64,000 nucleotides of DNA from an uncultured delta proteobacterium (GCA_963767275.1 CAVYDL010000005.1:401533-465532); one strand, 5' to 3'. Counted from the first letter of the stretch, positions 9,053 to 33,946 are shown. Notes: generated by a model from the letters alone, not told the origin. Program-made: numbers and translations.

Positions 9053-9674
9053 AACTTTCCGACCGCACCGCGGCCGGCTTGCCGGAGAGTTTTTGTTTCA
9101 GAACCGGCGCCAGCTTGAATGCCAGACGAGAGCCCAATAACACCGTGAGTACGGCGCCATATTGCACCGGACGGCGTATGTCGGCTTTGACCAGCCAGTA
9201 GAAATGCAGTACGCCGAGGATCGCAATTCCATAAACTAGATAGTGCAGTTGCTGCCAGCGCTTGCCAAGGCGGCGGATCATTCCAGTCGTTGAGGTGACG
9301 GCCAGCGGAATCATCAGCACAAAAGCGCTGAAGCCCACAGTGATATACGGTCGCTTGAGAATATCTTTGGCGATAGCGGAGAAATCGAAAAATAAATCGA
9401 GCACCATATAAGTCGAGAAATGTAGCGCGGCGTAGCTGAATGCGAACAGGCCGAGCATGCGGCGCAGTTTGATCACTTCGTTCCAGCCGGTGAGGCGGCG
9501 CAGCGGCGTGACGGTCAGACTGGCAAGCAAAATAAATAACGACCACGAACCGGTGAAGCGGGTGATGTATTCGATCGGGTTGGCGGTCAGATCGTCCGAA
9601 TAATAACGGTAACCAAGCTGGCCCAGGGGAATCAGGCAGACAATGAATGCCGCGGGCTTTAGATAAACAAGCAT
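9051..9674 (-). CDS. msrQ: protein-methionine-sulfoxide reductase heme-binding subunit MsrQ (YedZ)
   Basis: Six-TM ferric-reductase-like protein starting MLVYLKPAAFIVCLIPL; lies downstream of msrP; track ORF 9051..10016 has a spurious N-terminal extension overlapping msrP. Confidence 0.8.
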   Translation of the reverse strand: MLVYLKPAAFIVCLIPLGQLGYRYYSDDLTANPIEYITRFTGSWSLFILLASLTVTPLRRLTGWNEVIKLRRMLGLFAFSYAALHFSTYMVLDLFFDFSAIAKDILKRPYITVGFSAFVLMIPLAVTSTTGMIRRLGKRWQQLHYLVYGIAILGVLHFYWLVKADIRRPVQYGAVLTVLLGSRLAFKLAPVLKQKLSGKPAAVRSES

Positions 9675-9751
9675 GGGAGATAAAAATATAAAATTAAATC
9701 GATAAAAATAGGACCAAGGAACGCCGGCGGATTGGCATTTTACACGTTTGC

Positions 9752-10714
9752 TCAATAATATTTCTTCAGATCCATTCCTTTGTACAAGCTTGCGACTTGC
9801 TCGCCGTAGCCGTTGAACATCAAGGTTTTGCGCCGGCGGAATTCGCCGATCCGCCGTTCGCTTGCCTGGGTCCAGCGCGGATGGTCGACTTCGGGATTGA
9901 CGTTGGAGTAAAAGCCATACTCCTGCGGCTGCATGATGTTCCAGGAGGCCGCCGGCTGTTTCTCGACGAAGCGAACCTTGACGATCGACTTGATGCTTTT
10001 GAAACCGTACTTCCACGGTACGACGAGACGGATGGGCGCGCCGTTTTGCGCCGGCAGGACTTCGCCGTAAAGACCCACGGAAAGAATCGTCAGCGGATGC
10101 AGCGCTTCATCCATGCGCAACCCTTCGACATAAGGCCATTCCAACGTCGGCAGCTTTTGTCCCGGCAGCCGCTTGGGGTCGTTGAGGGTGACGAACTGAA
10201 TGAACTTGGCGTTGCCGGTGGGTTCGGCGAGCTTGATCAATGCGCTCAGTGGAAAGCCGATCCACGGGATTACCATGGACCAGGCTTCGACGCAGCGCAG
10301 CCGATAAATCCGCTCTTCCAACGGTGCCAACTTGATCAGCTCCTCGATGTCGTAGGTCTTGGCTTTTTTGACTTCGCCTTCCACAGCGACCGACCATGGA
10401 CGGGTGGTTAGATATTTGGCATTCTCCGCCGGATCCTCTTTGTCGGGGCCGAGTTCGTAGAAATTATTGTAGCTGGTGATCTCCTTCAGCGTGTTGAGCT
10501 TTTCATTGGTGCTGAAATTACTTTTCTTGACGTTGGCGAGTTTCTCGGCGCCATAGGCGATGCTCGATTCTGTGGCCAGCTCCAAGCCGCCAAGCATGGC
10601 GCCGCTGCTGAGCGCCAGGGCCGTTGCCGAAACCATGAACTGGCGGCGGTTCAGGTAGTGCTCTTTAGGGGTGATCTCCCCTGTTTTGATATCGGCTGGC
10701 TTCTTGATGAGCAT
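9752..10714 (-). CDS. msrP: protein-methionine-sulfoxide reductase catalytic subunit MsrP (YedY), molybdopterin
   Basis: Tat signal [12 protein letters not shown]; YedY-type sulfite-oxidase-fold motifs; strong RBS GGAGGAG before the ATG at 10714. Confidence 0.85.
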
Positions 10715-11282: not shown

Positions 11283-12050
11283 TTACTCTGCCGGAGGCGG
11301 ATCGATTTCAGCCTCCTTAAGCTTACTGGCTGGCGCGAGCTTTTGGGCGTCGCGATTTTCGCTCTGGCTCAAGTAGCCGACACTGGCGAGGCGGCTCAAT
11401 ATGATATTGCGCCGGGCGGCCAAGCTGCGCTCCCTGGAGTTGCGCGGGCTCGGCAGCAGGGCGGCCAAAGTCGCGGCTTCGACCAGATCGACGGCGCCGG
11501 CGGATTTGCCGAAATAGTGGCGCGCCGCCGCTTCGACGCCGTAAATATTGTGGCCCAATTCGACGACATTCAAGTAAACCTCGAAAATGCGGCGCTTCGG
11601 CAGAGCATGTTCAAGCTGGTGAGCGATGATGATTTCCTTCAATTTGCGCAGAGGATTCTTTGACGGGCTGAGATAGAGGTTCTTGGCCAGCTGCATGGTG
11701 ATGGTGCTGCCGCCGCGACTAAAGCTCAGGGTTTCAAGATCCTTCTTGAATGCGGCCTTAAGCTCGTTGACGTCAACGCCTTTGTGACTGTAGAACCCGG
11801 CGTCCTCGCTGATCAGGACGGCTTTTTTAATATGCTCCGAGATCGCGCCGTAGGGCACCCAGATTTGTTGGCGCCGTCCCCGTGAGTTTTGCTTGTTGTA
11901 CTCTTGGTCGCGCAAGCGCATGAGCGCGGTGCTACTAGGATTCTTCTGCTTGAGCGCCGAAACGTCAGGCAACGAAAAGTAAAAATAGTAACCGGTGCCG
12001 ACCAGGAGAGTCGCGAATAGGGTGCTAACCAGGACTCTTTTCATGTTCAA
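11283..12050 (-). CDS. mtgA: monofunctional biosynthetic peptidoglycan transglycosylase
   Basis: GT51 motifs EDAGFYSHKGVD, GGSTITMQLAKN; N-terminal TM anchor. Confidence 0.85.
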   Translation of the reverse strand: MNMKRVLVSTLFATLLVGTGYYFYFSLPDVSALKQKNPSSTALMRLRDQEYNKQNSRGRRQQIWVPYGAISEHIKKAVLISEDAGFYSHKGVDVNELKAAFKKDLETLSFSRGGSTITMQLAKNLYLSPSKNPLRKLKEIIIAHQLEHALPKRRIFEVYLNVVELGHNIYGVEAAARHYFGKSAGAVDLVEAATLAALLPSPRNSRERSLAARRNIILSRLASVGYLSQSENRDAQKLAPASKLKEAEIDPPPAE

Positions 12051-19840: not shown

Positions 19841-21118
19841 TCAGCGCAGAACTTCGAGCCTGCTCTTCCAGTGCTCCTGCCAGTCGGCGCCGGGGGCGAG
19901 AACTTCGGACTCCACAGTGAGTTGCGGGAAGCGGTTGGCATCCGGCGCACGGATGACATGGGGCCCTTCGCGGCCGGCTTCGACGTCGCGGATCGCCCGC
20001 AAGAGCTGGCGGCGCGCGACGATGATGGCTTTGTCGCTAGGGCCTAGGAATTCCTTGCTGCGGTCGACGATCTCGCCGCAGCCTTCGACGATGGCGACAT
20101 CGTGCACATTGAAGATCCGTCCCATGCCGGAGAAGCTCCAGTTCTTCATCGCTTCGCGGTCCTGCAGGTAGCGGTTGCTTTTGTTGCGTTTAGGCCGGTA
20201 GCCGGGGCCGAGCTCGTCCAAGATTTCCCGATCGCGCTCGATGTCGCGCTGCTCCATGGGCGCGCTGCGGCGGAACACGAAGTCGTAGCGCCAATGGTGC
20301 GTGTCGTCGATGGGAACATGCCAGTAAAGATTATAACCGTCGCCCGACATCGGACCCGGGATCGTCGCCTTGTTGGGAAACACGTAGTTGGTGACGCGGA
20401 AAAAAGTCCGTCCGTCGACGTCGCGCAGGGAAAAGATGCGCACGCCGTAATCGGTTTCTTCGGCGTCGATGCGCGGCGCCATGTCGGCGTCATAGAGCGC
20501 TAGAGGCAGCTTGCCGTCGCTGCCGGTGACGGTGCGTTTCAAATTATCCGGCACGTTGGCTTGGCGGTGCAGATAGGAAACATGACTGGGGTCGAGATTT
20601 CCTTCGTTGGCCTGAAAGAAATTGCACTCATGATAGAACTTGGAGGCCAGCACATGGCCCGCCGGCGCCACCAGCGGTTCATAGTTGGGCAGGAGCGGCG
20701 GCTCGCCCGGTCCCAGGTAGGCGAAGACAGCGCCGGCGCGTTCCTGGCAGGGGTAGGCGGGATGGCGCACCTTCTCGCAAAAGCGCCGGTCCGGCGGTTC
20801 GCAGGGCTGTTCGATGCAGCGGCCTTGACGGTCGAACAACCAGCCGTGATACAGGCAGCGCAGGCCGCCGTCTTCCACACGGCCATAGCTCAAGTCGGCG
20901 CGTCGGTGCGAGCAGTATTGGCCGATCAAACCGAGCTGGCCGTCGTTGCCGCGAAACAGAACCAGATCTTCGCTCATGATCTTGACCGGCAGCGGCGCGC
21001 CGTCACGCGGCAGCTCCTCGACGAGGGCGACAGGGTGCCAATGGCGCCGCAATAAATTTCCTCCCGGCGTGCCGGGACCGGTGTGGGTGATTAGGTTGTT
21101 GTCTTCCTGGGAAAGCAT
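19841..21118 (-). CDS. Rieske [2Fe-2S] non-heme iron oxygenase, alpha subunit (phthalate-family, alpha-only type)
   Basis: Rieske motif CSHRRADLSYG...CLYHGW; C-terminal catalytic domain. Confidence 0.75.
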   Translation of the reverse strand: MLSQEDNNLITHTGPGTPGGNLLRRHWHPVALVEELPRDGAPLPVKIMSEDLVLFRGNDGQLGLIGQYCSHRRADLSYGRVEDGGLRCLYHGWLFDRQGRCIEQPCEPPDRRFCEKVRHPAYPCQERAGAVFAYLGPGEPPLLPNYEPLVAPAGHVLASKFYHECNFFQANEGNLDPSHVSYLHRQANVPDNLKRTVTGSDGKLPLALYDADMAPRIDAEETDYGVRIFSLRDVDGRTFFRVTNYVFPNKATIPGPMSGDGYNLYWHVPIDDTHHWRYDFVFRRSAPMEQRDIERDREILDELGPGYRPKRNKSNRYLQDREAMKNWSFSGMGRIFNVHDVAIVEGCGEIVDRSKEFLGPSDKAIIVARRQLLRAIRDVEAGREGPHVIRAPDANRFPQLTVESEVLAPGADWQEHWKSRLEVLR

Positions 21119-21317: not shown

Positions 21318-22034
21318 GTGACCATGGCTAACAATTGGGCAAATGCTCGAGTCGATAACAGCGACATGCCGATTTACGTGACTCTGCCGGCGAGCGATCG
21401 GACCGTGCCGGGTATCGTTGTCGTCCACGGACGCTCGGGTCTGGAAGATTTCATCAAGGATACGACGCGGATGTTTGCCCAGCTGGGTTATGCCGCGGTG
21501 GCGCCGAGTCTCTATCATCGCGATGGGCCGGATTGCAAAGACGACAACGAAGTGCGCAAGGCGCGCCTGCGCGATCCGTCGATCATTCGTGACATCGAAG
21601 GCGCGATCGGCTTTCTCAGAAATCACCCGCAGGTCGACGGTGGCAGGCTCGGCATCGTCGGCTTCTGCATGGGCGGGCGGTTAGTTTATTTGATGTCGGC
21701 GGCGAGCAAGGATTTGAAAGCCGGCGTGATGTTCTACGGCAGCAGCACCATGGAACCTTACGGTGAAGCCGGACCGACCCCGTTCGACCGCACGCGCGAC
21801 ATCAATTGTCCGATCCAAGGCCATTTCGGCGCCGACGATCAAAATCCCTCGCCGGAAGACATGCGCAAGCTCGACGCCGAGCTGAGCAAGTTCGGCAAGC
21901 CCCACGAATTTCACAGCTACGCCGGCGCGGCGCACGCGTTCGTCAATTCAGGCTCGGGAAATTATCGGCCCCATGCTGCGGCGCTATCCTGGCCCAAGGC
22001 GATGGAGTTTTTTGCCCGGCATTTGGTGGGGTAG
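21318..22034 (+). CDS. dienelactone hydrolase family protein
   Basis: Alpha/beta hydrolase with nucleophile motif GFCMGG. Confidence 0.7.
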   Translation: MTMANNWANARVDNSDMPIYVTLPASDRTVPGIVVVHGRSGLEDFIKDTTRMFAQLGYAAVAPSLYHRDGPDCKDDNEVRKARLRDPSIIRDIEGAIGFLRNHPQVDGGRLGIVGFCMGGRLVYLMSAASKDLKAGVMFYGSSTMEPYGEAGPTPFDRTRDINCPIQGHFGADDQNPSPEDMRKLDAELSKFGKPHEFHSYAGAAHAFVNSGSGNYRPHAAALSWPKAMEFFARHLVG

Positions 22035-22044
22035 CGGAGAGACG

Positions 22045-22080
22045 GCGTTCAAAACGTTCACGCCGTTCAAATCGTTGTTG
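22045..22080. repeat. GTTCAA hexamer-cluster repeat
   Basis: gttcaa-aac-gttcac-gcc-gttcaa-atc-gtt, followed by TTGCGAATTGCGAAC / ATTAATTGCGAAAAC motifs. Confidence 0.7.
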
Positions 22081-22490
22081 CGAATTGCGAACATAATCGC
22101 GATTAATTGCGAAAACTTTTGACGAGAATATTCTTAATTGTGCGCGACGCCGTTGAAACTAAAGAGTTGGACGCCTGTTTTCGACCTATGCTTTGATCTG
22201 TTCCTGACCCCACCGAAGAGCTGCTTGTTTGGTCTCTCCTCGGCTGTTGTGGCCTTCTAATTCGCCCATATCACACAGAGTTCTCTCGGGATTTGTAGTA
22301 TCGGACCTATCCAAAACGTTCGCCTTCCAGAGCCATTCTGCCGCGCTATGATGATGTCGATTGTGTAATCTCTGTATGCCTTCTTCATGTGGCTGCTACG
22401 TATCATCCGCTCCCACGTAATTAAAACCTAAGCGTACGGTTGCTTTCTCTCTGTGATGTGCGGTAAAAAAAGCTCCTTTGAGGGAGCGTT

Positions 22491-22715
22491 ATGCAACAAT
22501 TTTACAAAGGTCATACGATTAAAACCTCAGCCCAGCATTTACGCGACACGCAACAATGGCAACCCGTGCTTCAAATAATAATTTGGAATTACAACCAGAA
22601 CTTATTCAAACCTTTCAGCGCAACCGAATGTTTTTCAACACGGGAGCAAGCTGAAAGTGAAGGCCTAATAATCGCTAAAAAATGGATCGATGACGGCAAG
22701 CCCGGCGTCTCCTAA
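22491..22715 (+). CDS. hypothetical small protein (YKGHTI...AKKWIDDG)
   Basis: 74 aa; lies in the low-GC island. Confidence 0.4.
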   Translation: MQQFYKGHTIKTSAQHLRDTQQWQPVLQIIIWNYNQNLFKPFSATECFSTREQAESEGLIIAKKWIDDGKPGVS

Positions 22716-22999
22716 TCCGCTCTCGCCACGAGATCATCCGGCGGCCTCTCCGGCGTCAATTCTCCCGCCTTGAGTTATCTATGGCACGTGCTGTAAACGG
22801 TGCATGCCATACGCTATTCGGTTTACTCTTTTCCTACTTGCCGCGCTCTCTGTTACCGGGGTGCTCGGGTATCGTAGCGGTTTCGCCGGGTCTGGGCGGT
22901 CGTGCTCGTAATTTTGGTCATGATCCCGCTTATCATCGAATTCGGCGCGAGGTGTTGAAGCGGGACAGGCTATAGACTTCAACAAGCGCCGGCGGCAGG

Positions 23000-23290
23000 C
23001 TACTGTTTCATATTGTTAGTCACAAAATCGTTCCATTCGCTAGTCGCCTGACTCAGGACGCGTTGGTGATTTTTGATGGCTTCTTCCTGCTGACGGATAA
23101 ATCCCTCGATACATGATCTATACTTATTCACAGCGTCGTTAAATTTGTCTGCGTCTGGTTGGGTTTTAATCTCAGACGCCTTACCTGGACCATGACATGC
23201 GTGAGATGGGGCAGAAGCGTCAGCGTAGACGAGCGGAGTGGCAAGCATCAAAGATGCAAAAACCGACATATTGAAAAGGTTTACGATCAT
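23000..23290 (-). CDS. secreted hypothetical protein
   Basis: Signal peptide MSVFASLMLATPLVYA. Confidence 0.45.
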   Translation of the reverse strand: MIVNLFNMSVFASLMLATPLVYADASAPSHACHGPGKASEIKTQPDADKFNDAVNKYRSCIEGFIRQQEEAIKNHQRVLSQATSEWNDFVTNNMKQ

Positions 23291-23403
23291 GGCTCCTCCA
23301 GGAGATATGACTTTATCGCATGATATTCTGCTGCCTACTTGTCAACGGGACAACTCCGCGTTGCTTGGCAATACCATGCAAGTGGAAAGGAGCAGTGTGA
23401 GAT

Positions 23404-24381
23404 TTAAGGACGAAGCTTCCTGCGGAAGTTTTCGTAGAGATCATCGAATATCGCAGTGGCACGCGCAAGCCGCGCGTCGTCATCTCTATGTGCCATAGCG
23501 ATTCCGTCGATCAGTCGGGCTATGCCTATAGTTTCTTCCCGTTCAAACTTCGAGTCTTTCAGGTCGATGTCGTGGACAATTTCGGCGATCCTAACGAGGC
23601 CAGGATCACGAATCCCCGTTCGCATCATTAATACTTCCATTGAACAGCAGTCGTTCTCATGTGTGAACTCCGCCTCAAACATATCGAATCGGATTTCATC
23701 GTGTAGCGGCGTGTATCCTTTGGCGGGAACGAACTTGATGCGAGCTTCAGGATCGATGAAGCGCCGGACTACCCAGGCGGTAGCCATTCGATCGACATGG
23801 ATACCCGTTCGGGTTACCCAAGTCTTACCTCGTAAATCATTAATGTTTGTTTTGCCCTCGGATGTCGGGCCAGCTTTATTGTCGCGCAAGCGCGCCTCGA
23901 TGCCGGAGAGCAGCCCAGTTGCCGCCTCACGGCCGGGCGCGCCAAAGAAATCGATGGCAACCGCTTCATCCAGGTGGCGCTTTAGTCGCGCGAGGTCGAG
24001 TTCAAGCTGCGGCCGATTCTTTTTACCGAGCTTCCCTTGGGGACTGACAGTCTTGGCTATCCGGCGCGCACCCTCGGCGATCTGGTCGTAATCGGCCGTG
24101 CGAGATACTTGGAACAGTGCTTCGACTTCATCATCGTTAATCCCATCAACCAACCGCGCCTCACACAGCGTGCCGTCTCCGCCACCTTCGACGATCTCGC
24201 GCAATACCCATTGGAAGTCTTCTTGCGACTGATCGCTTTTAGGGAGGACGTATACGGAATTTTTGATAGCTACCGCGCCGAGCCGTTGCAGGCGGCGCCA
24301 AATTTTGACGCGTAGGTAACTCGGCTTTGGCGGGATCTGGTGAATCAATAATAACCAGCGGATGTCGTCGGATTCTTTCAT
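23404..24381 (-). CDS. chrB: chromate resistance protein ChrB
   Basis: N-terminal WLLLIHQIPPKPSYLRVKIWRRLQRLGAV...VYVLP; divergent from chrA. Confidence 0.8.
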   Translation of the reverse strand: MKESDDIRWLLLIHQIPPKPSYLRVKIWRRLQRLGAVAIKNSVYVLPKSDQSQEDFQWVLREIVEGGGDGTLCEARLVDGINDDEVEALFQVSRTADYDQIAEGARRIAKTVSPQGKLGKKNRPQLELDLARLKRHLDEAVAIDFFGAPGREAATGLLSGIEARLRDNKAGPTSEGKTNINDLRGKTWVTRTGIHVDRMATAWVVRRFIDPEARIKFVPAKGYTPLHDEIRFDMFEAEFTHENDCCSMEVLMMRTGIRDPGLVRIAEIVHDIDLKDSKFEREETIGIARLIDGIAMAHRDDDARLARATAIFDDLYENFRRKLRP

Positions 24382-24492
24382 TGATTTTCTTGACAGGAGA
24401 AACAGTTGTTATATACGTGATACATTCGTCCTATGCACCCATCGCTAGTTTATACTGTCTCGACCTTTAACTGAAACAGGGAATGTTCTGCG

Positions 24493-25731
24493 ATGGAACC
24501 TTTAGGCCGGCAAGCCCAAGTGGCAGGCAGCGCGGCTTTTATAGCGCCCGATCCGCGAATCCGCTTGTGGTCGCTCATCGGCTACTTCCTCAAACTAGGC
24601 ACTATTGGTTTTGGCGGACCAGTGGCATTGGTCGGTTTCATGTACCGTGACCTAGTCGAGCGTCGCGGTTGGATCACCGAGGATACCTACAAGCTTTCCC
24701 TCGCGCTGGCGCAGATAATGCCCGGGCCGCTGGCTGCACAGACGGCGATTGCGATCGGATATTTCGAGGGAGGCATTCTCGGCGCCACGCTGGTTGGTCT
24801 CGCGTTCATTATCCCGTCGTTCCTGATGGTCGTCGGGATTTCGCTTGCCTACGTCGCCTACGGCGGTCTTTGGTGGATGCAGGCGCTTTTCTATGCGATC
24901 GGCGCCACCGTGATTGCGATCATCGCCATTGCGGCCTACAAGCTCGCGCGCAGCACCAATAAACGCGAGCCGTTGCTTTGGGCCATTTTCGCCGTTCTGA
25001 CGGTTGTTACGGTATGGGCGCAGGCCGAGCTGGCGGAGTTCTTTATTGTTGCCGGTCTTGTCATGCTGCTCTCCCATGCGTGGCCTGGTTGGCGTGTTGG
25101 TTCGCTCATGACGTTGGGCGCGGCAACTCTGGCGGCTACGATTTGGCTGCTTGAGGCCTGGCTGCGTCAAGCCGGCACCACGGCCGGTTCCCAAGATTTA
25201 CTTGTGCAGATACTCTTATTCTTCACTAAAGCCGGCGCTTTTGTATTTGGCAGCGGGCTGGCAATCATTCCATTTTTGCAACAGGGTGTCGTACAGCAGT
25301 TCGGCTGGCTGAACCAGCACCAATTCCTCGACGCCGTCGCGGTCGCGATGATCACCCCCGGGCCAGTCGTCATCACCGTCGCTTTCATTGGATTTCTGGT
25401 AGCCGGCTTCGCAGGCGCGGTGATGGCCTCGATCGGTATTTTTCTGCCGGTATATGTCTTCACGATCGTGCCAGCTCCGTGGTTCAAACGACATCGCGAT
25501 AATCCGCAGCTCAAGGCCTTCGTCGATGGCGCCACGGCCGCTGCAACGGGAGCGATTACCGGCGCAGTCATTGTTCTCGCAATGCGCGCGATCACCGACT
25601 GGACAACGGCGACCATCGCACTTGTCAGTTTTGCTGTGCTCTGGCGCTACAAGATTTCCGAGCCGATTATCGTAACGATCTCAGGCGTGATCGGTTTGAT
25701 TCTTTGGCCACTGCTGCGCGGCGGGTCATAG
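24493..25731 (+). CDS. chrA: chromate ion transporter ChrA (CHR family)
   Basis: Two CHR half-domains with GTIGFGGPVA and AFVFGSGLAIIPFLQ; about 12 TM. Confidence 0.85.
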   Translation: MEPLGRQAQVAGSAAFIAPDPRIRLWSLIGYFLKLGTIGFGGPVALVGFMYRDLVERRGWITEDTYKLSLALAQIMPGPLAAQTAIAIGYFEGGILGATLVGLAFIIPSFLMVVGISLAYVAYGGLWWMQALFYAIGATVIAIIAIAAYKLARSTNKREPLLWAIFAVLTVVTVWAQAELAEFFIVAGLVMLLSHAWPGWRVGSLMTLGAATLAATIWLLEAWLRQAGTTAGSQDLLVQILLFFTKAGAFVFGSGLAIIPFLQQGVVQQFGWLNQHQFLDAVAVAMITPGPVVITVAFIGFLVAGFAGAVMASIGIFLPVYVFTIVPAPWFKRHRDNPQLKAFVDGATAAATGAITGAVIVLAMRAITDWTTATIALVSFAVLWRYKISEPIIVTISGVIGLILWPLLRGGS

Positions 25732-25740
25732 GCAGGAAGC

Positions 25741-26868
25741 ATGTCTCACGGAAAGAGAAACTCTATGGCACACGATGTCTGCGAACGCATTGCAGTTGTC
25801 TACCCTGGTGATTATGCGGAAAGAACGAAGGCAACAGCCGAAAATAACCGGTTCATAGACTTGTTCGGAGCCTTTGCCGCCCAAGGGATACATGCGGTAC
25901 CGGCGGTTTACCGTGATGATTTTAGCGCGGAAGTTCACGCTCAACTGATGCGCGTAGACGCCGTTCTCGTCTGGGTCAATCCTATTCAGGACGGGCGCAA
26001 TCGGTCTGTTCTCGATGCCATGCTTCGCGAGGTGGCCACTGCAGGAATTTTTGTCAGCGCGCATCCCGACATCATCCTGAAGCTGGGCACGAAGGAAATT
26101 CTATACCGAACGCGCAATATGGGGTGGGGGAGTGAGACTTATCTCTATAACAGCATGGAACAAGTGCGTCAGGAATTGCCCGCTCGCTTGGCAATCGGAA
26201 AAGCCCGCGTACTCAAACAATACCGCGGTAACGGCGGATCTGGCGTTTGGAAAGTGCAATTGCCGATGGGCGACTTTACGAGCGCTGAACAAGGTAGTGT
26301 CGGGCCTTTGCAGGCTGAAACGATCGTTCGCGTCCGCCATGCACAACGCGGCTGCAGTGAAGAAGAGATCATGTTAGGCGAATTCTTTGCACGATGTGAG
26401 GAATATTTTCTCGCGGACGGCCGGATGATTGACCAGGCGTATCAAGAACGGCTCCCCGACGGCATGATTCGCTGTTATCTCGTGCAGGAAAAGGTGGTCG
26501 GATTTGGCCACCAGGCTATCAACGCATTATTCCCCGCGCCTTCCGGCGCAGCGCCGACAGACGCCCCCCAACCTGGACCCCGCTTATACCATCCGCCCAC
26601 CAAGCCGGAATTCCAGGCTCTGAAACAGAAGTTAGAGCATGAGTGGTTACCGGCGCTGCAGCAGCTACTTGAAATCAACACCGAGAGCCTTCCCATTCTT
26701 TGGGATTGCGATTTTCTCCTCGGGCCGAAGGACGAATCCGGCGAAGACAGGTATGTGCTTTGCGAAATCAACGTCAGCAGTGTTGCGCCGTATCCTGAAT
26801 CTGCGGTGCACTACATCGTTGATGCGACGGTGGCTCGGGTACAATCGACGAGACAGAGACGCGTTTGA
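25741..26868 (+). CDS. ATP-grasp domain protein (RimK-like ligase fold), function unknown
   Basis: Motif VLKQYRGNGGSGVWKV and C-terminal LCEINVSSV resemble ATP-grasp signatures; 10 nt downstream of chrA. Confidence 0.45.
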   Translation: MSHGKRNSMAHDVCERIAVVYPGDYAERTKATAENNRFIDLFGAFAAQGIHAVPAVYRDDFSAEVHAQLMRVDAVLVWVNPIQDGRNRSVLDAMLREVATAGIFVSAHPDIILKLGTKEILYRTRNMGWGSETYLYNSMEQVRQELPARLAIGKARVLKQYRGNGGSGVWKVQLPMGDFTSAEQGSVGPLQAETIVRVRHAQRGCSEEEIMLGEFFARCEEYFLADGRMIDQAYQERLPDGMIRCYLVQEKVVGFGHQAINALFPAPSGAAPTDAPQPGPRLYHPPTKPEFQALKQKLEHEWLPALQQLLEINTESLPILWDCDFLLGPKDESGEDRYVLCEINVSSVAPYPESAVHYIVDATVARVQSTRQRRV

Positions 26869-27521
26869 ATGTCTAAAACCTCCGGGCAGGATATCGCTTC
26901 AAACGCGGCCTTCTCTTGGGCGCATTGATCGCCGTGTATCCGAGAAGATCAAAAGGATGGTGATTACTTGGTTGAAACGGTTTGCTAATTAACCAGACGC
27001 GAGCGCCGTCACTTTGGGCTCGGCGCCTTAAGGGTTTCATTGCTGCAATTTCGTCATCGCGCGCCTTGGCCTGTTGACGCGGTTGCGCAACACCTTTGTC
27101 TGTTCGTCGGCTATGACCATGCGGCCTGTTGCACCGGGCGCCTCGGTCTTGTACCGGACCGCAATATTCATGTCTCCGCTCGCCATGGATTGCACAGTTA
27201 TCGACTCAACCGATGGCTAAGTCTTTCCACTGTTAATCGGTGCTTCACTTCCGGCCCTCCCCGGTTTTTGTAGCTTTTAATTCGCGTTGATCGCGCAAAT
27301 CAATCTTACCCGGCTATAAGGTTTTACGAAGTCTCCGGGCGCGCATGCCCAATTTTCACCGGCATTTTAGGAGCCGCACTCACTATTCTGTGGCACACAT
27401 GCTGCGTTGACTTTCTTTAGTCAGCGCCCGGAGTTAGCTCGTCGTAAGTTCATCAACTTTTGGTTTTGGAGTCGGCATTCGCCGTGTATTAGTTAACAGC
27501 GAAAATGGAGTTATTATCACG

Positions 27522-28019
27522 ATGCAAGCCTGGTATGTCATTTATACAAAAGCGCAGAAGGAAGAGCTCGCGCAATTCCATTTGAAATTGAAGAATCTCG
27601 AATCGGTTTTTCCCAGACTCTTGCTACCGCTATTTTCGCGTAAGCAAAAGCGAATTGTTCCGCTATTCCCCAACTATCTTTTTGTTCGGATTGATTTCGA
27701 GAAAGAGTATGACTTTGTGCGTTGGTCGCCCGGTGTGAAGTGTTTCGTTAGTTTCAATGACAGGCCGCATCCTTTGGAAGACGGTGTGGTCGAATATCTT
27801 TTGGATCGGGCGGATAAGAACGGGATCATTGCCGCGCGGCCTAACCTAAAAAAAGGCCAAGAGGTACGAATTTGCGGTGGTCCTCTGGCTGGGCTAGATG
27901 GAATTATTCAAAATCCTCCTGATGCAAAAGGGCGAGTGACAGTGCTATTGAGCCTTTTTAACCGCAACGTCGAAGCAGGGGCGCGGTTAGAGCACATCGA
28001 GAGTAGTTGGCTGAAATAA
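27522..28019 (+). CDS. NusG-paralog transcription antiterminator (UpxY/LoaP/RfaH-like)
   Basis: NGN domain WYVIYTKAQKEELA...YLFV; KOW motif GQEVRICGGPLAGLDGII. Confidence 0.7.
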   Translation: MQAWYVIYTKAQKEELAQFHLKLKNLESVFPRLLLPLFSRKQKRIVPLFPNYLFVRIDFEKEYDFVRWSPGVKCFVSFNDRPHPLEDGVVEYLLDRADKNGIIAARPNLKKGQEVRICGGPLAGLDGIIQNPPDAKGRVTVLLSLFNRNVEAGARLEHIESSWLK

Positions 28020-28176
28020 GCTTTCTAAGTAGGTTTGTCGTTACCGGCGGCGTTTCTTTCGGGCTCGGCACCGTTTTATAAAGTTAAATAGACTAAATAT
28101 GCGACAAAAAACTGACAGGATAATGCCAAAGATACCCGCTACGAATCCTCAAAAATTCATCGGCGGACGCTAGCGT

Positions 28177-28365
28177 CTACGGATTGAGCGCAATGTCGTC
28201 TACATATCCGCACTCTGTGCATCGCGCTCGGAGACAGTCCTTCCAGACCGAAGGATCAAGCGGTGTAGTATTGGGTATTAACTTCATCACACCATTGCCG
28301 CACTTCGGACACGTACTATTTGGTTTGACCATATCGTCACACCTTTCTTGTTCGTGAATTTGCAT
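28177..28365 (-). CDS. zinc-ribbon small protein
   Basis: CPKCG...CTECG, two CxxC pairs. Confidence 0.45.
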   Translation of the reverse strand: MQIHEQERCDDMVKPNSTCPKCGNGVMKLIPNTTPLDPSVWKDCLRARCTECGYVDDIALNP

Positions 28366-28604
28366 GCGAAACGATGGCGTAATCAGGCATGCACGAGCCC
28401 TAGTCCCATTTACCGACTATGTCAAAGCCAATATCGGATGGGGTGTAGGCTCGACGCCCCCATTTGTTTCTGTACAGAAATGGGTGGGAGAGGTTGAAGG
28501 CGAACCGCCCAATTTATGATTTCTAAGTTGTGGGACGAGATTCGGATCGTTGCGTGGACGCGATGCTGCTTGGGGACGAAGCAAAAGCAGGAGGGCTATT
28601 CTGA

Positions 28605-28859
28605 CTAAAGGTCACCTAGCAAGCCGGCGTCTCTGAGCCCTTGACGGATCCGTTTTATTGCCTCGGGGCAATGCTCTCTGGCGATGGATAATAATTGGAA
28701 TGCATGATCTTCGTTGCAATGAATAGCGTTGGTAGGCCAACCGGTAGATTGAAGTTGGGATCCGGAGTTGAGCAGCATTATTCCGAGTGCGGAGCTGCGC
28801 TCAATGTGCCTGAGAAAACAGTCTACATCGGCTGAGGAAAGCTCAATGATAATCTCCAT
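28605..28859 (-). CDS. hypothetical protein
   Basis: 84 aa ORF in the island. Confidence 0.3.
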   Translation of the reverse strand: MEIIIELSSADVDCFLRHIERSSALGIMLLNSGSQLQSTGWPTNAIHCNEDHAFQLLSIAREHCPEAIKRIRQGLRDAGLLGDL

Positions 28860-29263
28860 CGTGCTGCCTCCGCGGCGCCCAAGATCATAGGGGCCACTCC
28901 GATATTAAGTATTAGTAGTTTCTGTGAGTTATCGCTGTCAGATAACAGACAACGTTCGTTTTTACCGATGTCAGGTCCGTGATGGATGGCTGCTCGCCGA
29001 ACGGAAACATCGTGACGCCGCGATCTTCGAGAGCCCAGGGGGGCGTGACGTTTTTCGGCTTGGCGGCCCGCCTTTTGATATTTCTCCGCTAGGGAAACAA
29101 CTGGCGCCAAAATTGGAATCTTTTGAGTTTATCTTTGTGCGGTAATAGTCCCATTAGGGTGAAACTATTTCATACTGTCCGGCCCATGGGACGAACGGCA
29201 ATCCTAGACAGGTTAATTCCCCATCACATTTTCGCGCATGGCGGATGCGCTCGCTCGAACCGT

Positions 29264-30322
29264 TCAGCGCGGCGGCAGCGGCCCGGCCCCGTTGATCTTT
29301 TTGAACAGATCGATGATTTCCGGGTCGCGCGGCAAATCTTTCACCAGCTTTTCCATCTCTTCCGGCAATATCGGCGTCGGTTCTTCGCCGACCATTTTTT
29401 TGTATTCCTTGTGAAACTCCGGGTCGTTGAAAGTTTTGCTAAAAGCTTGGCGCAGAACTTTTAACTGCTCGACGGAAGTTCCCGGCGGCAGAATATAGGG
29501 CGAGCCGACTTGCCTGAAGGCGCGAACCATTGACGTCAATCGCCGTTCGCGCGCCGTCTTGGCAAATTCATCGATCTCGGGCAGACGGTCGAAGCCGGAT
29601 TGTTTTAGTCCGCGCGGAACCTCCATGATCGCGTGAATGTCGATCATGCCTTTGGCGAGCATATCGGCGTTGCGCCGCACCAGAGTATCGGGATTGTTTA
29701 CGCGGCCGTCGATTTCTCCTCTGGCTAGAGCGATGTCTTGCTCATTTCCTGAATAGCCAACCAGCATTTTCGGCTCTTTGATGCCTATCAGCCAGGCAAA
29801 CAGGCGGCCGACGAAATAATTGGAATGGCCCACGGCCTGGGCGCCGATGCGTATGCCGGGCGCTTGGCGCAGCGCTTCCAAGGTGCCGAAGCCGGCGTCG
29901 CGGCGGGTGATAAAAACCCAGTGGTAGGTGCTGTGGGCGGAGCCCAGATAAATCAGTTTGTCGAGATCGTAAAGGACGCCGGCTTCTTTCAACGCGGCAT
30001 TGGCGACCAGGCCGCCGCCGATGCGGCCGATGGTGAGCCCGTCAGGTTTGGTGTTATGAAAGATATGGTTGGCGGCCTTGGTGCCGCCGCCTCCGGGCAT
30101 ATATTGGTATGCGATGGTCGGCTCGCCGGGAATATGCTTTCTCAAGACCGGGATCGTCGCCCGGACCATCGTATCGGAGGTGTCCCCGGGATCGGAGGAC
30201 TGAAGGATCGTCAGAGTCTTCCCCTGATAGAATGGCGCCTGCGACAGTGCGGGGAACGGCCACCACAGGCTTAGCAACGCTACCAGCATCAATCGTCGGA
30301 AGTCATAATTCGTTGGGAGCAT
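29264..30322 (-). CDS. Bug family (TctC-like) tripartite tricarboxylate transporter substrate-binding protein
   Basis: Signal peptide; Bug-family length; motifs PGGGGT, GYSGNEQD. Confidence 0.8.
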   Translation of the reverse strand: MLPTNYDFRRLMLVALLSLWWPFPALSQAPFYQGKTLTILQSSDPGDTSDTMVRATIPVLRKHIPGEPTIAYQYMPGGGGTKAANHIFHNTKPDGLTIGRIGGGLVANAALKEAGVLYDLDKLIYLGSAHSTYHWVFITRRDAGFGTLEALRQAPGIRIGAQAVGHSNYFVGRLFAWLIGIKEPKMLVGYSGNEQDIALARGEIDGRVNNPDTLVRRNADMLAKGMIDIHAIMEVPRGLKQSGFDRLPEIDEFAKTARERRLTSMVRAFRQVGSPYILPPGTSVEQLKVLRQAFSKTFNDPEFHKEYKKMVGEEPTPILPEEMEKLVKDLPRDPEIIDLFKKINGAGPLPPR

Positions 30323-30970: not shown

Positions 30971-31044
30971 TAGATAAGACATCGGCTCCGCCGGTTCTGA
31001 CCCAAACAGATACGGCTTGGATGATGCGAATTGCTCGCATCATC

Positions 31045-31160
31045 CAAGCCGTTTGTACTGCGCGATTCTGCTAGCTACTTCTTCGCCGCGATCGGCACTC
31101 CGGGCAGCTTGGTTTTCTCGTCGTAATACTCTTGAGAAAATTCCGGGGTTTGCGCCGTGC
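31045..31160. repeat. Direct repeat copy A; contains a 3' fragment of an enoyl-CoA hydratase gene
   Basis: About 115 nt, roughly 95% identical to 33836..33946; minus strand encodes PEFSQEYYDEKTKLPGVPIAAKK*; preceded by a perfect 16-bp-stem hairpin at 31021-31057. Confidence 0.85.
31076..31150 (-). pseudogene. enoyl-CoA hydratase 3'-terminal gene remnant (about 24 codons)
   Basis: Identical C-terminal peptide to the intact gene at 33865..34707, with no upstream reading frame. Confidence 0.7.
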
Positions 31161-31219
31161 CTAGATTTTCTGAACGGCCAATAATCCTGGCAGGGAGTTC
31201 GAGCCGAGATTGTTATTAT

Positions 31220-32782
31220 TCATTTGTTGTCGACCGATTTGCTCCCTGGAGTCGGTGCGGAGGTATTGTCTTGAGTCATATCGCCTAAGTATTGAGGTAA
31301 CTCAATACCGGCCATGGCGGCGACGTCGTGCAGCGGTGGCAAACTTTTGATCAGCCCGGCGAGGAAATTGGCTGTCGAACTGCCATCCTTTCCATTGCTG
31401 GTGCCGGAATCCCAAACCGTAACCTTATCGATTTTGATACCTTTAATCGCCTCCACCTGCAGGTGGACGATTTGTTCGATCTTTTCCGTCATTAACAGAG
31501 TTGCCGCGGCTTTCGCGTCGCCGTTGCAGCCACGAACGAGTTCCAGGTAGCCGGCTGCTTTGCTGTCGAGAACCTTGCGGATGCCTTCGGCTTCGGCGTC
31601 GTACTTTAGCAAGATGGCGTCAGCCACGCCCTTGGCTTCGCGCCGGGTCTTCTCGGCTTCGGCTTCGGCGGCAATCTCGATCTTGCGTTTCTCGATCTCC
31701 TGGGGCACTACCTCGGCCGCGGTCAGTCGTTCTTGCTCGGCCTTGGCCTGGGCCTTTTGAATCTCCGCTTCGGCTTCGCGCTTTGCCACCTCGCCACGCT
31801 GTAATGATTCGGCCTGCTTGACGGCTAGTTCGGCGTTGTAGGCGGCAATATTGGCCTTAGCCATGTTCTCACCCGCGATGGCTTGAGCTTCCTGTCCCTG
31901 GATAAAAACCCGCCGGTCGGCTTCCGCCTGTTTTTTGCCCTTTTCCGCTTCGGCGACATTTACCGCTACGCGAATTTCCTTTTCCCGATTGGCGGTGGAT
32001 TCGCCGATGGTTGCCGTTGTCTCTTGCTGCTGGACGAAAATTCGCTGGTCGGCTTCAGCGCTCTTTTTCCCTTTCTCCGATTCGGCGACGTTTTCGGCGA
32101 CACGGATGGTTTTCTCGCGGGTCGCTTCGGCCTCACCGATGGCGCCCTTCTTGTCCTGTTCGGCGACGTCGACCTTGGCCTGGTTGATCGCTTCCGACGC
32201 CGCTTTTTTGCCGATTGAATCGATGTAGCCCGACTCGTCGGTGATGTCCGTAATGTTGACGTTGATCAAGTAGAGACCGATTTTGTTTAGCTCCGGCGCG
32301 ACGTTTTTGCGGATCGACTCGAGGAACGATTCGCGATCCTGGTTGATCTGCTCGATGGTGAGCGAAGCGACGGTCAGGCGGAGCTGGCCAAAGATAATCT
32401 CGCGGGCCATCTCTTCGATCTGGTTTTGGGTCTGATTGAGCAAGCGCTCGGCGGCGGCGGTCATGATCGTCGGATCGGTGCTGATGCCGACGGTAAAAGT
32501 GGAGGGAACATTGATCCGAATATTCTGCAGTGATAACGCCTTCTGGAGTGGAATGGGAATGGTCATCGGCGTTAGGCTCATGTAAGCGTAATCTTGGATC
32601 AGCGGCCAAATCAACGTGCCGCCGCCGTGGATACAATTTGCCGATTGTCCTTGTCCGACCTTGCCGTAAACTACGAGAATCTTATCCGAGGGACACCGTT
32701 TGTAGCGGCTGGCGAGGAAACTGATGGTCGATATGACCAAGATGAGGAGAGCGCCGATGGGGAGAATCCAGAAGTCAAACAT
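31220..32782 (-). CDS. flotillin-like SPFH/band-7 protein (YqiK/FloT-like)
   Basis: N-terminal TM; SPFH domain; long Ala/Glu/Lys-rich coiled-coil with internal EA repeats. Confidence 0.8.
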   Translation of the reverse strand: MFDFWILPIGALLILVISTISFLASRYKRCPSDKILVVYGKVGQGQSANCIHGGGTLIWPLIQDYAYMSLTPMTIPIPLQKALSLQNIRINVPSTFTVGISTDPTIMTAAAERLLNQTQNQIEEMAREIIFGQLRLTVASLTIEQINQDRESFLESIRKNVAPELNKIGLYLINVNITDITDESGYIDSIGKKAASEAINQAKVDVAEQDKKGAIGEAEATREKTIRVAENVAESEKGKKSAEADQRIFVQQQETTATIGESTANREKEIRVAVNVAEAEKGKKQAEADRRVFIQGQEAQAIAGENMAKANIAAYNAELAVKQAESLQRGEVAKREAEAEIQKAQAKAEQERLTAAEVVPQEIEKRKIEIAAEAEAEKTRREAKGVADAILLKYDAEAEGIRKVLDSKAAGYLELVRGCNGDAKAAATLLMTEKIEQIVHLQVEAIKGIKIDKVTVWDSGTSNGKDGSSTANFLAGLIKSLPPLHDVAAMAGIELPQYLGDMTQDNTSAPTPGSKSVDNK

Positions 32783-32794
32783 AGAAATGCCTTT

Positions 32795-33391
32795 CTAGTT
32801 AATTCGCTCAACCACCATAATATTTGCATCGACTCGGACGACACGGATCGGCGTGCCAGTGCGCAGCTCTGACCCATTGCTTTCAATGGCGTCGAATTCC
32901 CGCAGATGGTTTCGGAAATCGATGTTGACGCGTCCGGTGCCGTTTGCCGGAATGGTGAGATAGACGATGCCGGTGCTGCCGACGGCGTCCGCCGTCTGGA
33001 GGTTGCCGCTCGCCTGGAGGCCAGCGGCCCATTGAAAAAGCTTGCCAATGATCCAGACGGCGACCATTCCGGCGATGGCGGCGCCAGCAATGGATAGTGC
33101 CAATCCAGAGCGGCTTTGTCGGTAGAGAGCAAGGCCAACCAGACCGAACATCATTAAAAAGGCGCTGAAGCCGTGCAGAGAAAGGAAGCGGAACCCTACG
33201 TCGGAGTCGACGTGCTGGCCATCGAAATCGATGTCAGTGTCGATGCTGGCGCCAAAATGGCCGCCCATGAATTGGAGGATCAGCTTGACCACGACAAAAA
33301 AGCCGCCGATGAGGGCACAGCCGAGAAACGTATACTCTAGTCCGTTAAAACTGGAAAAGGCGTTTTCCACTGTAGTTCTCCTAAGCAACAA
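32795..33391 (-). CDS. NfeD-like membrane protein (YqiJ-like flotillin partner)
   Basis: Multi-TM N-terminus plus C-terminal OB-fold segment (TGIVYLTIPANGTGRVNI); immediately upstream of the flotillin gene on the same strand. Confidence 0.65.
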   Translation of the reverse strand: MLLRRTTVENAFSSFNGLEYTFLGCALIGGFFVVVKLILQFMGGHFGASIDTDIDFDGQHVDSDVGFRFLSLHGFSAFLMMFGLVGLALYRQSRSGLALSIAGAAIAGMVAVWIIGKLFQWAAGLQASGNLQTADAVGSTGIVYLTIPANGTGRVNIDFRNHLREFDAIESNGSELRTGTPIRVVRVDANIMVVERIN

Positions 33392-33835
33392 TTTCTGAAA
33401 TCACGAGCATGCCGCTTTCGGAATGAGCATTCGTCGACTGCCGAAGCCCTTGTGGCCGCGAGTTTGGGCGCGGATGATCCCTGACCTTATCGCCGCTTAA
33501 CCAGACACGTTTCGCGATTGTACCTGCTTGCAGCTTGGATTGTCTACGGACGAGATGGTAACTGTGTGGCTGCGAAAATAGATAAGGCGGGAAATCAATT
33601 GGAGATCCACTCAAGCGGGTAAGCCATGATTGAGAGCGTGTCTGCGTCTGGCTATCGCCGCAATGCTGACAGCTTATGGGTGATTGGACCGGCATTCCCG
33701 CGATCGGGTGAACCCCGGTAATTGTCCACGGGGAAGTGATCCAACGATTAGGGTGGCAACGGGCGAGGAGGAATCTGCTAGTAACGGATTGAAACGCACA
33801 GAATCGGCTTGAACGATCTGACCAGTCAAATCGTT

Positions 33836-33946
33836 CAAGCCGTTTGCACTCGCGATTCCGCTAGCTACTTCTTGGCCGCGATCGGCACTCCGGGCAGCTT
33901 GGTTTTCTCGTCGTAATACTCTTGAGAAAATTCCGGTTTGCGCCGT
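33836..33946. repeat. Direct repeat copy B (3' end of the intact enoyl-CoA hydratase gene)
   Basis: Matches 31045..31160; preceded by a hairpin ggcttgaacgat...atcgttcaagcc of the GTTCAA family. Confidence 0.85.

Follow-up and report, generated by a model that had tools for sequence, protein, structure and literature searches.

The window analysed here is a stretch of 64,000 nucleotides from an uncultured delta proteobacterium (GCA_963767275.1, CAVYDL010000005.1:401533-465532). Downstream of a dienelactone hydrolase (DLH) gene it contains a 7184-bp segment, at positions 22077–29260, with a divergent chrB–chrA pair, a Cj0069-family/DUF6815 gene, a gene for an RfaH-like NusG paralog and several small open reading frames (ORFs). 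This segment is likely a species-specific, decaying mosaic genomic islet of an uncultured soil Binatia-type bacterium, without mobility genes. A description of the region made from the DNA alone (the sequence-only reading) had proposed an island here, and the gene content that it listed was confirmed throughout: chrB, chrA, the gene that we assign to Cj0069/DUF6815, an NusG-like gene, a 96-aa protein with a signal-peptide-like N-terminus and a zinc-ribbon ORF. The principal features are given below, with GC3 as the GC fraction at third codon positions.

22077..29260: the islet, 7184 bp; found only in this species, where it stands in place of ~98 bp of intergenic DNA of a sister species (L005)
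22047..22076: short tandem repeat CGTTCAnnn, directly after the DLH stop codon; conserved flank that marks the left junction
22078..22113, plus strand: three copies of TTGCGAA, an imperfect palindrome; first bases inside the islet
23404..24381, minus strand: chrB, divergent from chrA; ChrB_C (2.6e-42) and ChrB_N (1.4e-14), both above cut-offs; GC3 0.59
24493..25731, plus strand: chrA, long-chain CHR family; two Chromate_transp stretches (3e-76); GC3 0.67
25741..26868, plus strand: Cj0069-family/DUF6815 gene, starting 9 bp after chrA; DUF6815 3.3e-33; GC3 0.58
27452..27521, plus strand: native upstream DNA of the NusG paralog, ~70 bp; homology to the loci L040, L041 and L128 starts at 27452–27459
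27522..28019, plus strand: RfaH-like NusG paralog, 165 aa, intact; Pfam NusG 1e-15; GC3 0.49

Site, borders and composition of the islet

Four copies of the segment are available: the window and three long metagenomic contigs (L001, L002 and L003) that encode an identical NusG-paralog protein. The three contigs share the gene order of the window and are 97–99.7% identical to it at the DNA level. For the relatives, one genome per species was scanned with the flanking DLH protein, which yielded 35 loci, nearly all of them from metagenome-assembled genomes of Candidatus Binatia or of uncultured delta proteobacteria. The sequence-only reading, which took the segment for a horizontal acquisition, named its conservation in all relatives as the observation that would speak against it; islet genes occur in none of these 35 other DLH loci (tblastn with 18 window proteins). 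The synteny comparison that it proposed likewise came out in its favour, with the flanking genes adjacent or nearly so in three sister species. In two sister-species loci (L005 and L006), a gene for a 352-aa TctC-like binding protein follows directly after the DLH gene; in a third (L004), as well as in L032, a glyoxalase gene takes that position. The neighbourhood is variable: what lies from the DLH gene to the enoyl-CoA hydratase gene differs among species.

DNA homology between the window and L005 ends at 22076 and restarts at 29261, and this break defines the islet as 22077–29260. The left end of homology at 22076 is common to L005, L006 and L004. Three GTTCA cores lie within 22047–22071, immediately before this point, and the CGTTCAnnn repeat that they form is kept nearly base for base in the islet-free L004, L005 and L006, where other intergenic DNA diverges. 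The repeat is therefore flank DNA and not an islet border. When the sequence-only reading chose a GTTCAA repeat as the left boundary, it was right that the repeat exists and that homology ends just after it; what it had marked is conserved flank rather than the end of the islet. DLH identities suggest that the islet-bearing species is nested among islet-free species. The islet was gained after the split from species that are ~85–89% identical in flank DNA, and 'old', as the acquisition had been called, applies only in a relative sense.

The composition of the segment deviates from its surroundings. Positions 22035–29263 form the lowest-GC 7.2-kb stretch of the window, at 52.2% GC, compared with a mean of 57.2% (sd 1.8%) for all 7.2-kb stretches and 57.4% for the window as a whole. 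GC is 58.1% outside the islet and 60–62% directly upstream. Within the islet it is uneven, with 46–50% at both ends and 54–59% in the chr centre. The drop from 64% to about 50% GC that was first described does exist, but the real figures are about 58% and 52.2%, a difference of ~6 points and not 14. Codon usage points the same way: background GC3 is 0.731 ± 0.040 (37 genes), islet genes range from 0.45 to 0.67 and, chrA apart, their z-scores run from −3.6 to −7.0. Uniform GC or codon usage, which the sequence-only reading had set down as evidence against an island, is therefore found in neither windowed GC nor GC3.

Hallmarks of mobility are lacking, in agreement with the earlier statement that no integrase or tRNA is seen. 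ARAGORN finds no tRNA or tmRNA in the window, and no Rfam family matches there. No integrase or transposase Pfam domain occurs in the called genes of L001–L003, either in the islet or within 10 kb of it, and the islet ORFs match no mobility genes in the family scans. A search for direct and inverted repeats across 21800–29500 returned chance-level pairs only, none of which links the two ends. Among the classical traits of a genomic island, the segment has patchy presence at the same site and deviant composition, and it lacks a tRNA site, a mobility gene, flanking direct repeats and a size of 10–200 kb. The window copy is 7184 bp long and the L003 copy about 14.5 kb; 'islet' is the better term.

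The islet opens with an ORF-free stretch of 414 bp (22077–22490) at ~47% GC. Three TTGCGAA motifs fall within a 36-bp span at the islet start, compared with eight in the whole window, much as the sequence-only reading had reported for an AT-rich, ORF-free left stretch. The tandem TTGCGAATTGCGAA was found only in the strain copies (128 loci checked). This cluster could be a candidate regulatory site (operator or promoter) of the small gene that follows. A promoter scan gave fewer promoter-like sites than in shuffled sequence, and no convincing terminator was detected.

Modules of the islet and accounts of its origin

We read the islet as a mosaic of at least three modules and not as one unit. 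The first is the chromate cassette. ChrA belongs clearly to its family (TIGR00937, 359 bits against a cut-off of 171.7) and is 86–89% identical to the ChrA of three metagenomic cassettes (L042–L044); ChrB, whose gene lies 111 bp from chrA, is 62–68% identical to the ChrB of L042 and L043. ChrB is a chromate-sensing regulator and ChrA a chromate exporter driven by the proton-motive force, and the gene content predicts that the cassette confers chromate efflux. The Cj0069-family protein likewise scores well above its family threshold (NF033816, 346 bits against 150), and its gene is probably co-transcribed with chrA. Close homologs of this protein (75–84% identity) sit at the end of a chr cassette in five of five independent metagenomic contexts. 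Metagenomic cassettes usually run from a divergent chrB–chrA pair, in some cases via a DUF1080-like gene, to a gene for an Fe/Mn superoxide dismutase (SOD; ChrC-like) and finally Cj0069; the window cassette is without the DUF1080-like and SOD genes of its closest relatives.

DNA homology of the window to other chr cassettes is limited to 23431–26870. In L044 (1–12350), a chr cassette of 52–57% GC directly adjoins DNA of 68–72% GC, and this setting in DNA of foreign composition indicates that the cassette moves between lineages. The Cj0069 family is also annotated on 28 records of a plasmid collection, where its members are 43–51% identical to the window protein. Chr genes are directly adjacent to Cj0069 in four of the seven plasmid contexts inspected, with two more partial cases. 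For example, plasmid pR1b of Sphingomonas sp. R1 and plasmid p4 of Novosphingobium sp. ES2-1 both carry chrB-chrA-SOD-Cj0069 beside a resolvase gene, to which p4 adds a Tn3 transposase gene, and on pTiKerr27 chrA and Cj0069 overlap by 4 bp.

The sequence-only reading called the third gene of the cassette an ATP-grasp gene. The gene is present; the label rests on weak fold matches to a low-confidence model. The protein has no Pfam ATP-grasp match, no PDB sequence match and no match in PHROGs or PADLOC. Its structure model has a mean predicted local distance difference test score (pLDDT) of 58, which reflects a shallow alignment. Foldseek returned six matches to this model at E ≤ 0.001, of which four are ATP-grasp enzymes (two D-Ala-D-Ala ligases, RimK and PurK), with template modelling (TM) scores of 0.22–0.42. 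The Cj0069-family protein may be ATP-grasp-like. A further conjecture is that it might act alongside ChrA in chromate resistance, as an ATP-dependent ligase of a kind not yet characterised. In the literature searched, we found no paper that links Cj0069 or DUF6815 with chromate. Identity with chrF of TnOtChr was considered and rejected: ChrF is a protein of ~17 kDa (PMC4779226), and chrF is therefore a different gene.

The chrB gene is intact in the window and split into two gene calls by one or two indels in each of the other strain copies. These indels lie at different places (L001 5873–6852, L002 5882–6860, L003 5874–6852) and could be long-read homopolymer errors or independent pseudogenisation.

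The second module is the NusG paralog, which has an NGN domain and a borderline KOW motif. Its best sequence match in the PDB is Escherichia coli RfaH, over the full length, at E = 3.5e-14. It reaches 96 bits with the RfaH model TIGR01955 (cut-off 144.5) and 84.6 bits with NF006534 (cut-off 124), and scores lower with the models for UpxY (54, cut-off 100), LoaP (57, cut-off 125) and housekeeping NusG (TIGR00922, 52, cut-off 135.7). With a full-length RfaH alignment and scores under the curated cut-offs, it is a specialised RfaH-like paralog and not an RfaH equivalog. The PHROGs and PADLOC scan added a generic antiterminator PHROG only.

At least 349 homologs of the paralog were found. Cluster-member names of the homologs looked up are almost uninformative on taxonomy, with 'Candidatus Binatia' given for just one NusG cluster. 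Family contexts were examined in three long contigs and 80 metagenomic loci, which were screened with export proteins from L039–L041. Genes for Poly_export/SLBB, Wzz-GNVR kinase or AAA_22 proteins follow downstream on the same strand in 26 of the 27 loci that extend for at least 2.5 kb past the paralog, whereas the same probes find no export-gene homolog in the 64-kb window. The term 'orphan', which the sequence-only reading had applied to this NusG paralog, is therefore correct, and the arrangement is unusual within the family.

The closest operon-head copies, 88% (L128) and 86% (L039) identical to the window paralog, sit in a syntenic locus of the form UbiD - HTH_17 - ... - paralog - export. 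These copies are also of low GC (47%, GC3 0.48–0.51) within loci of 54–55%; low GC is therefore a trait of the paralog family and not a marker of a distant or foreign donor. Judging from these relationships, the paralog evidently derives from within Binatia. DNA homology to the operon-head copies is restricted to 27452–28031, that is, to ~70 bp before the gene and 12 bp after it.

Operon-head paralogs in five Binatia loci are preceded, 200–500 bp upstream, by a conserved leader of ~300 nt with an average identity of 87% (L039, L040 and L041, each at 9501–9800; L047, 3691–3990; L128, 4844–5143). The leader keeps this level also in loci whose paralog genes share just 68% identity. It is absent from the window, both in a block search and with a profile built from the leader; that profile matched no other locus scanned, and the leader has no Rfam match in the operon-head loci. 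It may be a structured RNA, or else the conserved promoter and recruitment region that serves a swappable polysaccharide cassette.

The paralog family also has two types of C-terminal domain, "...NPPDAKGRVTLLLSLFKR..." and "...ADAKGRVKILMQLLSRK...", which are paired with different types of N-terminal domain. L040 has the other C-terminal type behind an N-terminal half like that of L128 (alignment A3); in three further members (P0026, P0029 and P0033), a C-terminal domain of the window type follows a divergent N-terminal half. These combinations suggest domain-level recombination in the family.

The remaining DNA of the islet holds small ORFs, as follows.

22491..22715, plus strand: 74-aa protein, weak CV_2116 match (NF046097, 50.6 bits, below the cut-off of 58); GC3 0.45
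23000..23290, minus strand: 96-aa secreted-protein gene, signal-peptide-like N-terminus; GC3 0.485
28177..28365, minus strand: 62-aa zinc-ribbon ORF, CPKC...CTEC (CxxC...CxxC); GC3 0.51
28605..28859, minus strand: 84-aa protein with a 41%-identical paralog in the extra DNA of L003; GC3 0.53

The CV_2116-like protein is 97–100% identical in the strains. The zinc-ribbon protein is 100% identical in all four strain copies, while the DNA around it is 97.6% identical in L003. Neither the 96-aa nor the 84-aa protein has a match in Pfam, NCBIfam, PHROGs or PADLOC. A further ORF of 52 aa (27037–27195, minus strand) in the spacer between the Cj0069 and NusG-paralog genes is a gene call in each of L001–L003, and has no match in PHROGs or PADLOC, the two libraries searched.

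The strain copies differ at two points in the right part of the islet.

28509..28518: strain-variable breakpoint; short form in the window and L002, 1105 bp more in L001 and 6665 bp more in L003
29155..29177: second strain-variable point; ~640 bp more in L003, encoding a CusF-like protein of 94 aa

In L001, the extra DNA at 28509 carries a DUF3800-like gene, whose product has no match in PHROGs or PADLOC. The longer insert of L003 holds a frameshifted DUF3800 remnant, the paralog of the 84-aa gene, a response regulator and a PAS-GAF-GGDEF protein. Microhomology at the 28509 junction amounts to just 1–2 bp. Since L001 and L003 contain this additional DNA, the window and L002 hold the most reduced form, and these differences support ongoing deletion and decay of the islet. 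The suggestion of the sequence-only reading that this is an old or decayed horizontal acquisition gains support from three sides: gene loss from the chromate cassette, loss of the leader and operon of the paralog, and the 1.1 kb or 6.7 kb retained by other strains at 28509.

We propose that the islet was assembled between the DLH gene and the TctC-like binding-protein gene, in a neighbourhood that varies by species. One module would be a reduced chromate cassette (about 23431–26870), fuller versions of which appear to move between lineages and lie on plasmids. The NusG paralog (27452–28031) would have come, by copying or relocation, from a polysaccharide-export locus of Binatia, at whose head it stood; ~70 bp of upstream DNA would have travelled with it, and the conserved leader would have been lost together with the operon. 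A third module would be low-GC filler with small ORFs (CV_2116-like, secreted 96-aa, zinc-ribbon and 84-aa). The whole would then have been whittled down by deletion. The route of entry was presumably recombination and not site-specific integration.

An alternative is that a single pre-assembled element (e.g., a decayed transposon or integrative element from a plasmid metal-resistance region) entered the site and became heterogeneous later. All modules do occur together in all four strains, yet no other locus among those compared joins chr genes with this paralog. A CusF-like gene is present both in the long L003 form and in the metal-resistance surroundings of cassette L042, and Cj0069 chr cassettes on plasmids adjoin Tn3-type transposase and/or resolvase genes; here, however, no transposase, resolvase, inverted repeats or target duplication is left. 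Moreover, the paralog is of a Binatia chromosomal type, 88% identical to the copy in the UbiD-...-polysaccharide locus, and its homology ends within 70 bp and 12 bp of the gene. A plasmid-derived block is hard to reconcile with such a paralog and such abrupt ends, and we regard a single element as unlikely.

It is very improbable that the segment was ancestral at the site and was lost independently in the relatives. The neighbourhood is plastic and deletions are seen within the species, but this account needs loss in all 35 other lineages, including three sister species with clean, short junctions, and it does not explain the strong GC3 deviation of the islet genes from the host or the presence of the chr cassette in unrelated genomic backgrounds and on plasmids. 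That the low GC is a local compositional quirk or the product of an assembly chimera is extremely improbable: the drop is modest (5–6 points) and other 1-kb windows also reach 52–53%, but the same junctions recur in four independent long assemblies, the absence in relatives is independent of composition and the stretch is the most extreme of its 7.2-kb size in the window.

Several observations weigh against a mosaic islet as proposed here. The relatives are all metagenome-assembled, and absence of the islet is established at this site and not genome-wide. Its chrA is hardly deviant in GC3 (z = −1.5), and the low GC of the paralog is uninformative on foreign origin. The segment shows no mechanism of entry: tRNA, integrase and transposase genes are lacking, and so are terminal repeats, direct or inverted.

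Further downstream, the window contains a second strain-variable islet (31159–33829) that is absent from L001 and L002. Its cargo is a flotillin/SPFH gene (31220–32782, minus strand), an NfeD-like gene (32795–33391, minus strand) and a 104-aa ORF. It is flanked by an imperfect direct repeat of 153 bp (31006–31158 and 33798–33946, 87% identical) that duplicates the 3′ end of the enoyl-CoA hydratase gene together with a hairpin. In L004, the same repeat pair (11428–11526 and 20050–20158) surrounds a different cargo of 8.5 kb, with arylsulfotransferase, NMT1, creatininase, GAF histidine kinase and sigma-54 regulator genes. Neither cargo includes an integrase. Positions 31006–33946 look like a cassette-exchange site.

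Function of the orphan paralog

Conservation of the paralog is high in the family and among strains. In an alignment of 31 family sequences, it retains every one of the 27 invariant and the 27 nearly invariant positions. The protein is identical in the four strain copies, and the three to four nucleotide differences from L001 and L003 are all synonymous. At 99.2% identity, it is also the best-conserved islet gene in the comparison with L003, where other islet genes are 96.1–98.2% identical. This pattern shows signs of purifying selection.

In the AlphaFold model (pLDDT 73, predicted TM score 0.72), the C-terminal domain consists of two helices (residues 121–130 and 135–145) and not of a KOW barrel, and the best structural matches are autoinhibited RfaH structures (8pib, 5ond and 2oug; TM 0.70–0.77, target-normalised). 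In RfaH, K10 and R73 contact ops DNA, and E48, I93 and F130 take part in autoinhibition (PMC7593976). In the alignment with the paralog, K10 is kept, R73 is aligned to Pro70, E48 falls in a gap, I93 is replaced by Val and F130 by Ile. The model gives only a hint of an RfaH-like autoinhibited state, given the pLDDT of 66–69 in the C-terminal domain.

Our tentative suggestion is that the paralog is still functional and, without an operon in cis, would act in trans, if it acts at all, on a polysaccharide operon elsewhere in the genome, in the manner of RfaH. We think it quite unlikely, on present evidence, that the paralog is in transition from an operon-embedded to a free-standing factor, i.e., detached, kept by selection and acting in trans through an RfaH-style fold-switching C-terminal domain. 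Weighing against a functional or transitional paralog, the sign of selection rests on just three to four synonymous changes, the helical C-terminal domain is modelled at the low confidence given above, with three of the five models poor, and neither R73 nor E48 of RfaH is conserved. Furthermore, the host's own polysaccharide locus was not identifiable in a search with the L039 export protein, whose best match was L128, from another sample.

A competing explanation, which we find doubtful, is that the orphan paralog is a remnant, now without function, of a polysaccharide cassette that was deleted, and has so far escaped disabling mutations. Both the conserved native leader and the downstream operon are gone, and the DNA right after the paralog is a deletion hotspot; the reading frame, in contrast, is intact, all 54 conserved family positions are kept and the strain differences are synonymous only, although neighbouring genes diverge more. 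No sigma-70-like promoter was found upstream of the paralog on its own strand, a result that fits a remnant. Against the remnant view, RfaH demonstrates that factors of this kind can function without linkage to their targets (PMC7593976).

Relation to known systems

All components of the islet can be placed in known families, and as a whole it is a typical, fairly ordinary genomic islet. It resembles other genomic islets in its size (<10 kb), deviant composition, accessory cargo, absence from close relatives and variable neighbourhood, and we see no essential difference from them. The chromate cassette shares a ChrB regulator and a long-chain ChrA with known chr determinants such as TnOtChr, which has the order chrB-chrA-chrC-chrF (PMC3817168), and with plasmid cassettes. 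As on plasmids, a Cj0069-family gene comes last, and its spacing from chrA is tight, as on pTiKerr27. Unlike these determinants, the window has chrB divergent from chrA and not co-directional with it, and is without a transposase or resolvase.

The paralog has the length and two-domain layout of E. coli RfaH, which is its best match in the PDB by both sequence and fold. RfaH is a specialised NusG paralog that is recruited at ops sites and acts in trans on unlinked operons (PMC7593976). Like rfaH, the window gene is not beside a target operon, and the targets of its family appear to be polysaccharide loci, one class of RfaH targets (PMC7593976). In contrast to RfaH, its host belongs to Binatia and not to Proteobacteria, and the rest of its family is encoded at the operon head. 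That position recalls the operon-embedded factors UpxY of Bacteroides, LoaP of Bacillus and TaA of Myxococcus. UpxY, for instance, is encoded as the first gene of capsule operons (PMC11685472, PMC7593976), and the family of the window paralog heads export operons in 26 of 27 cases. The window copy differs from these factors in having no operon, and no UpxZ-like partner is seen.

For the Cj0069/DUF6815 family, which has thousands of members and, to our knowledge, no known function, its place as the habitual last gene of a mobile chromate-resistance cassette provides a functional context. For NusG paralogs, the survey points to a large RfaH-like family that heads polysaccharide-export loci in Binatia and other soil lineages. 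If the transition considered above were true, it would amount to an independent, non-proteobacterial route to RfaH-like regulation. In a paralog separated from its operon, nature provides an experiment on how antiterminators encoded in cis could turn into factors that act in trans.

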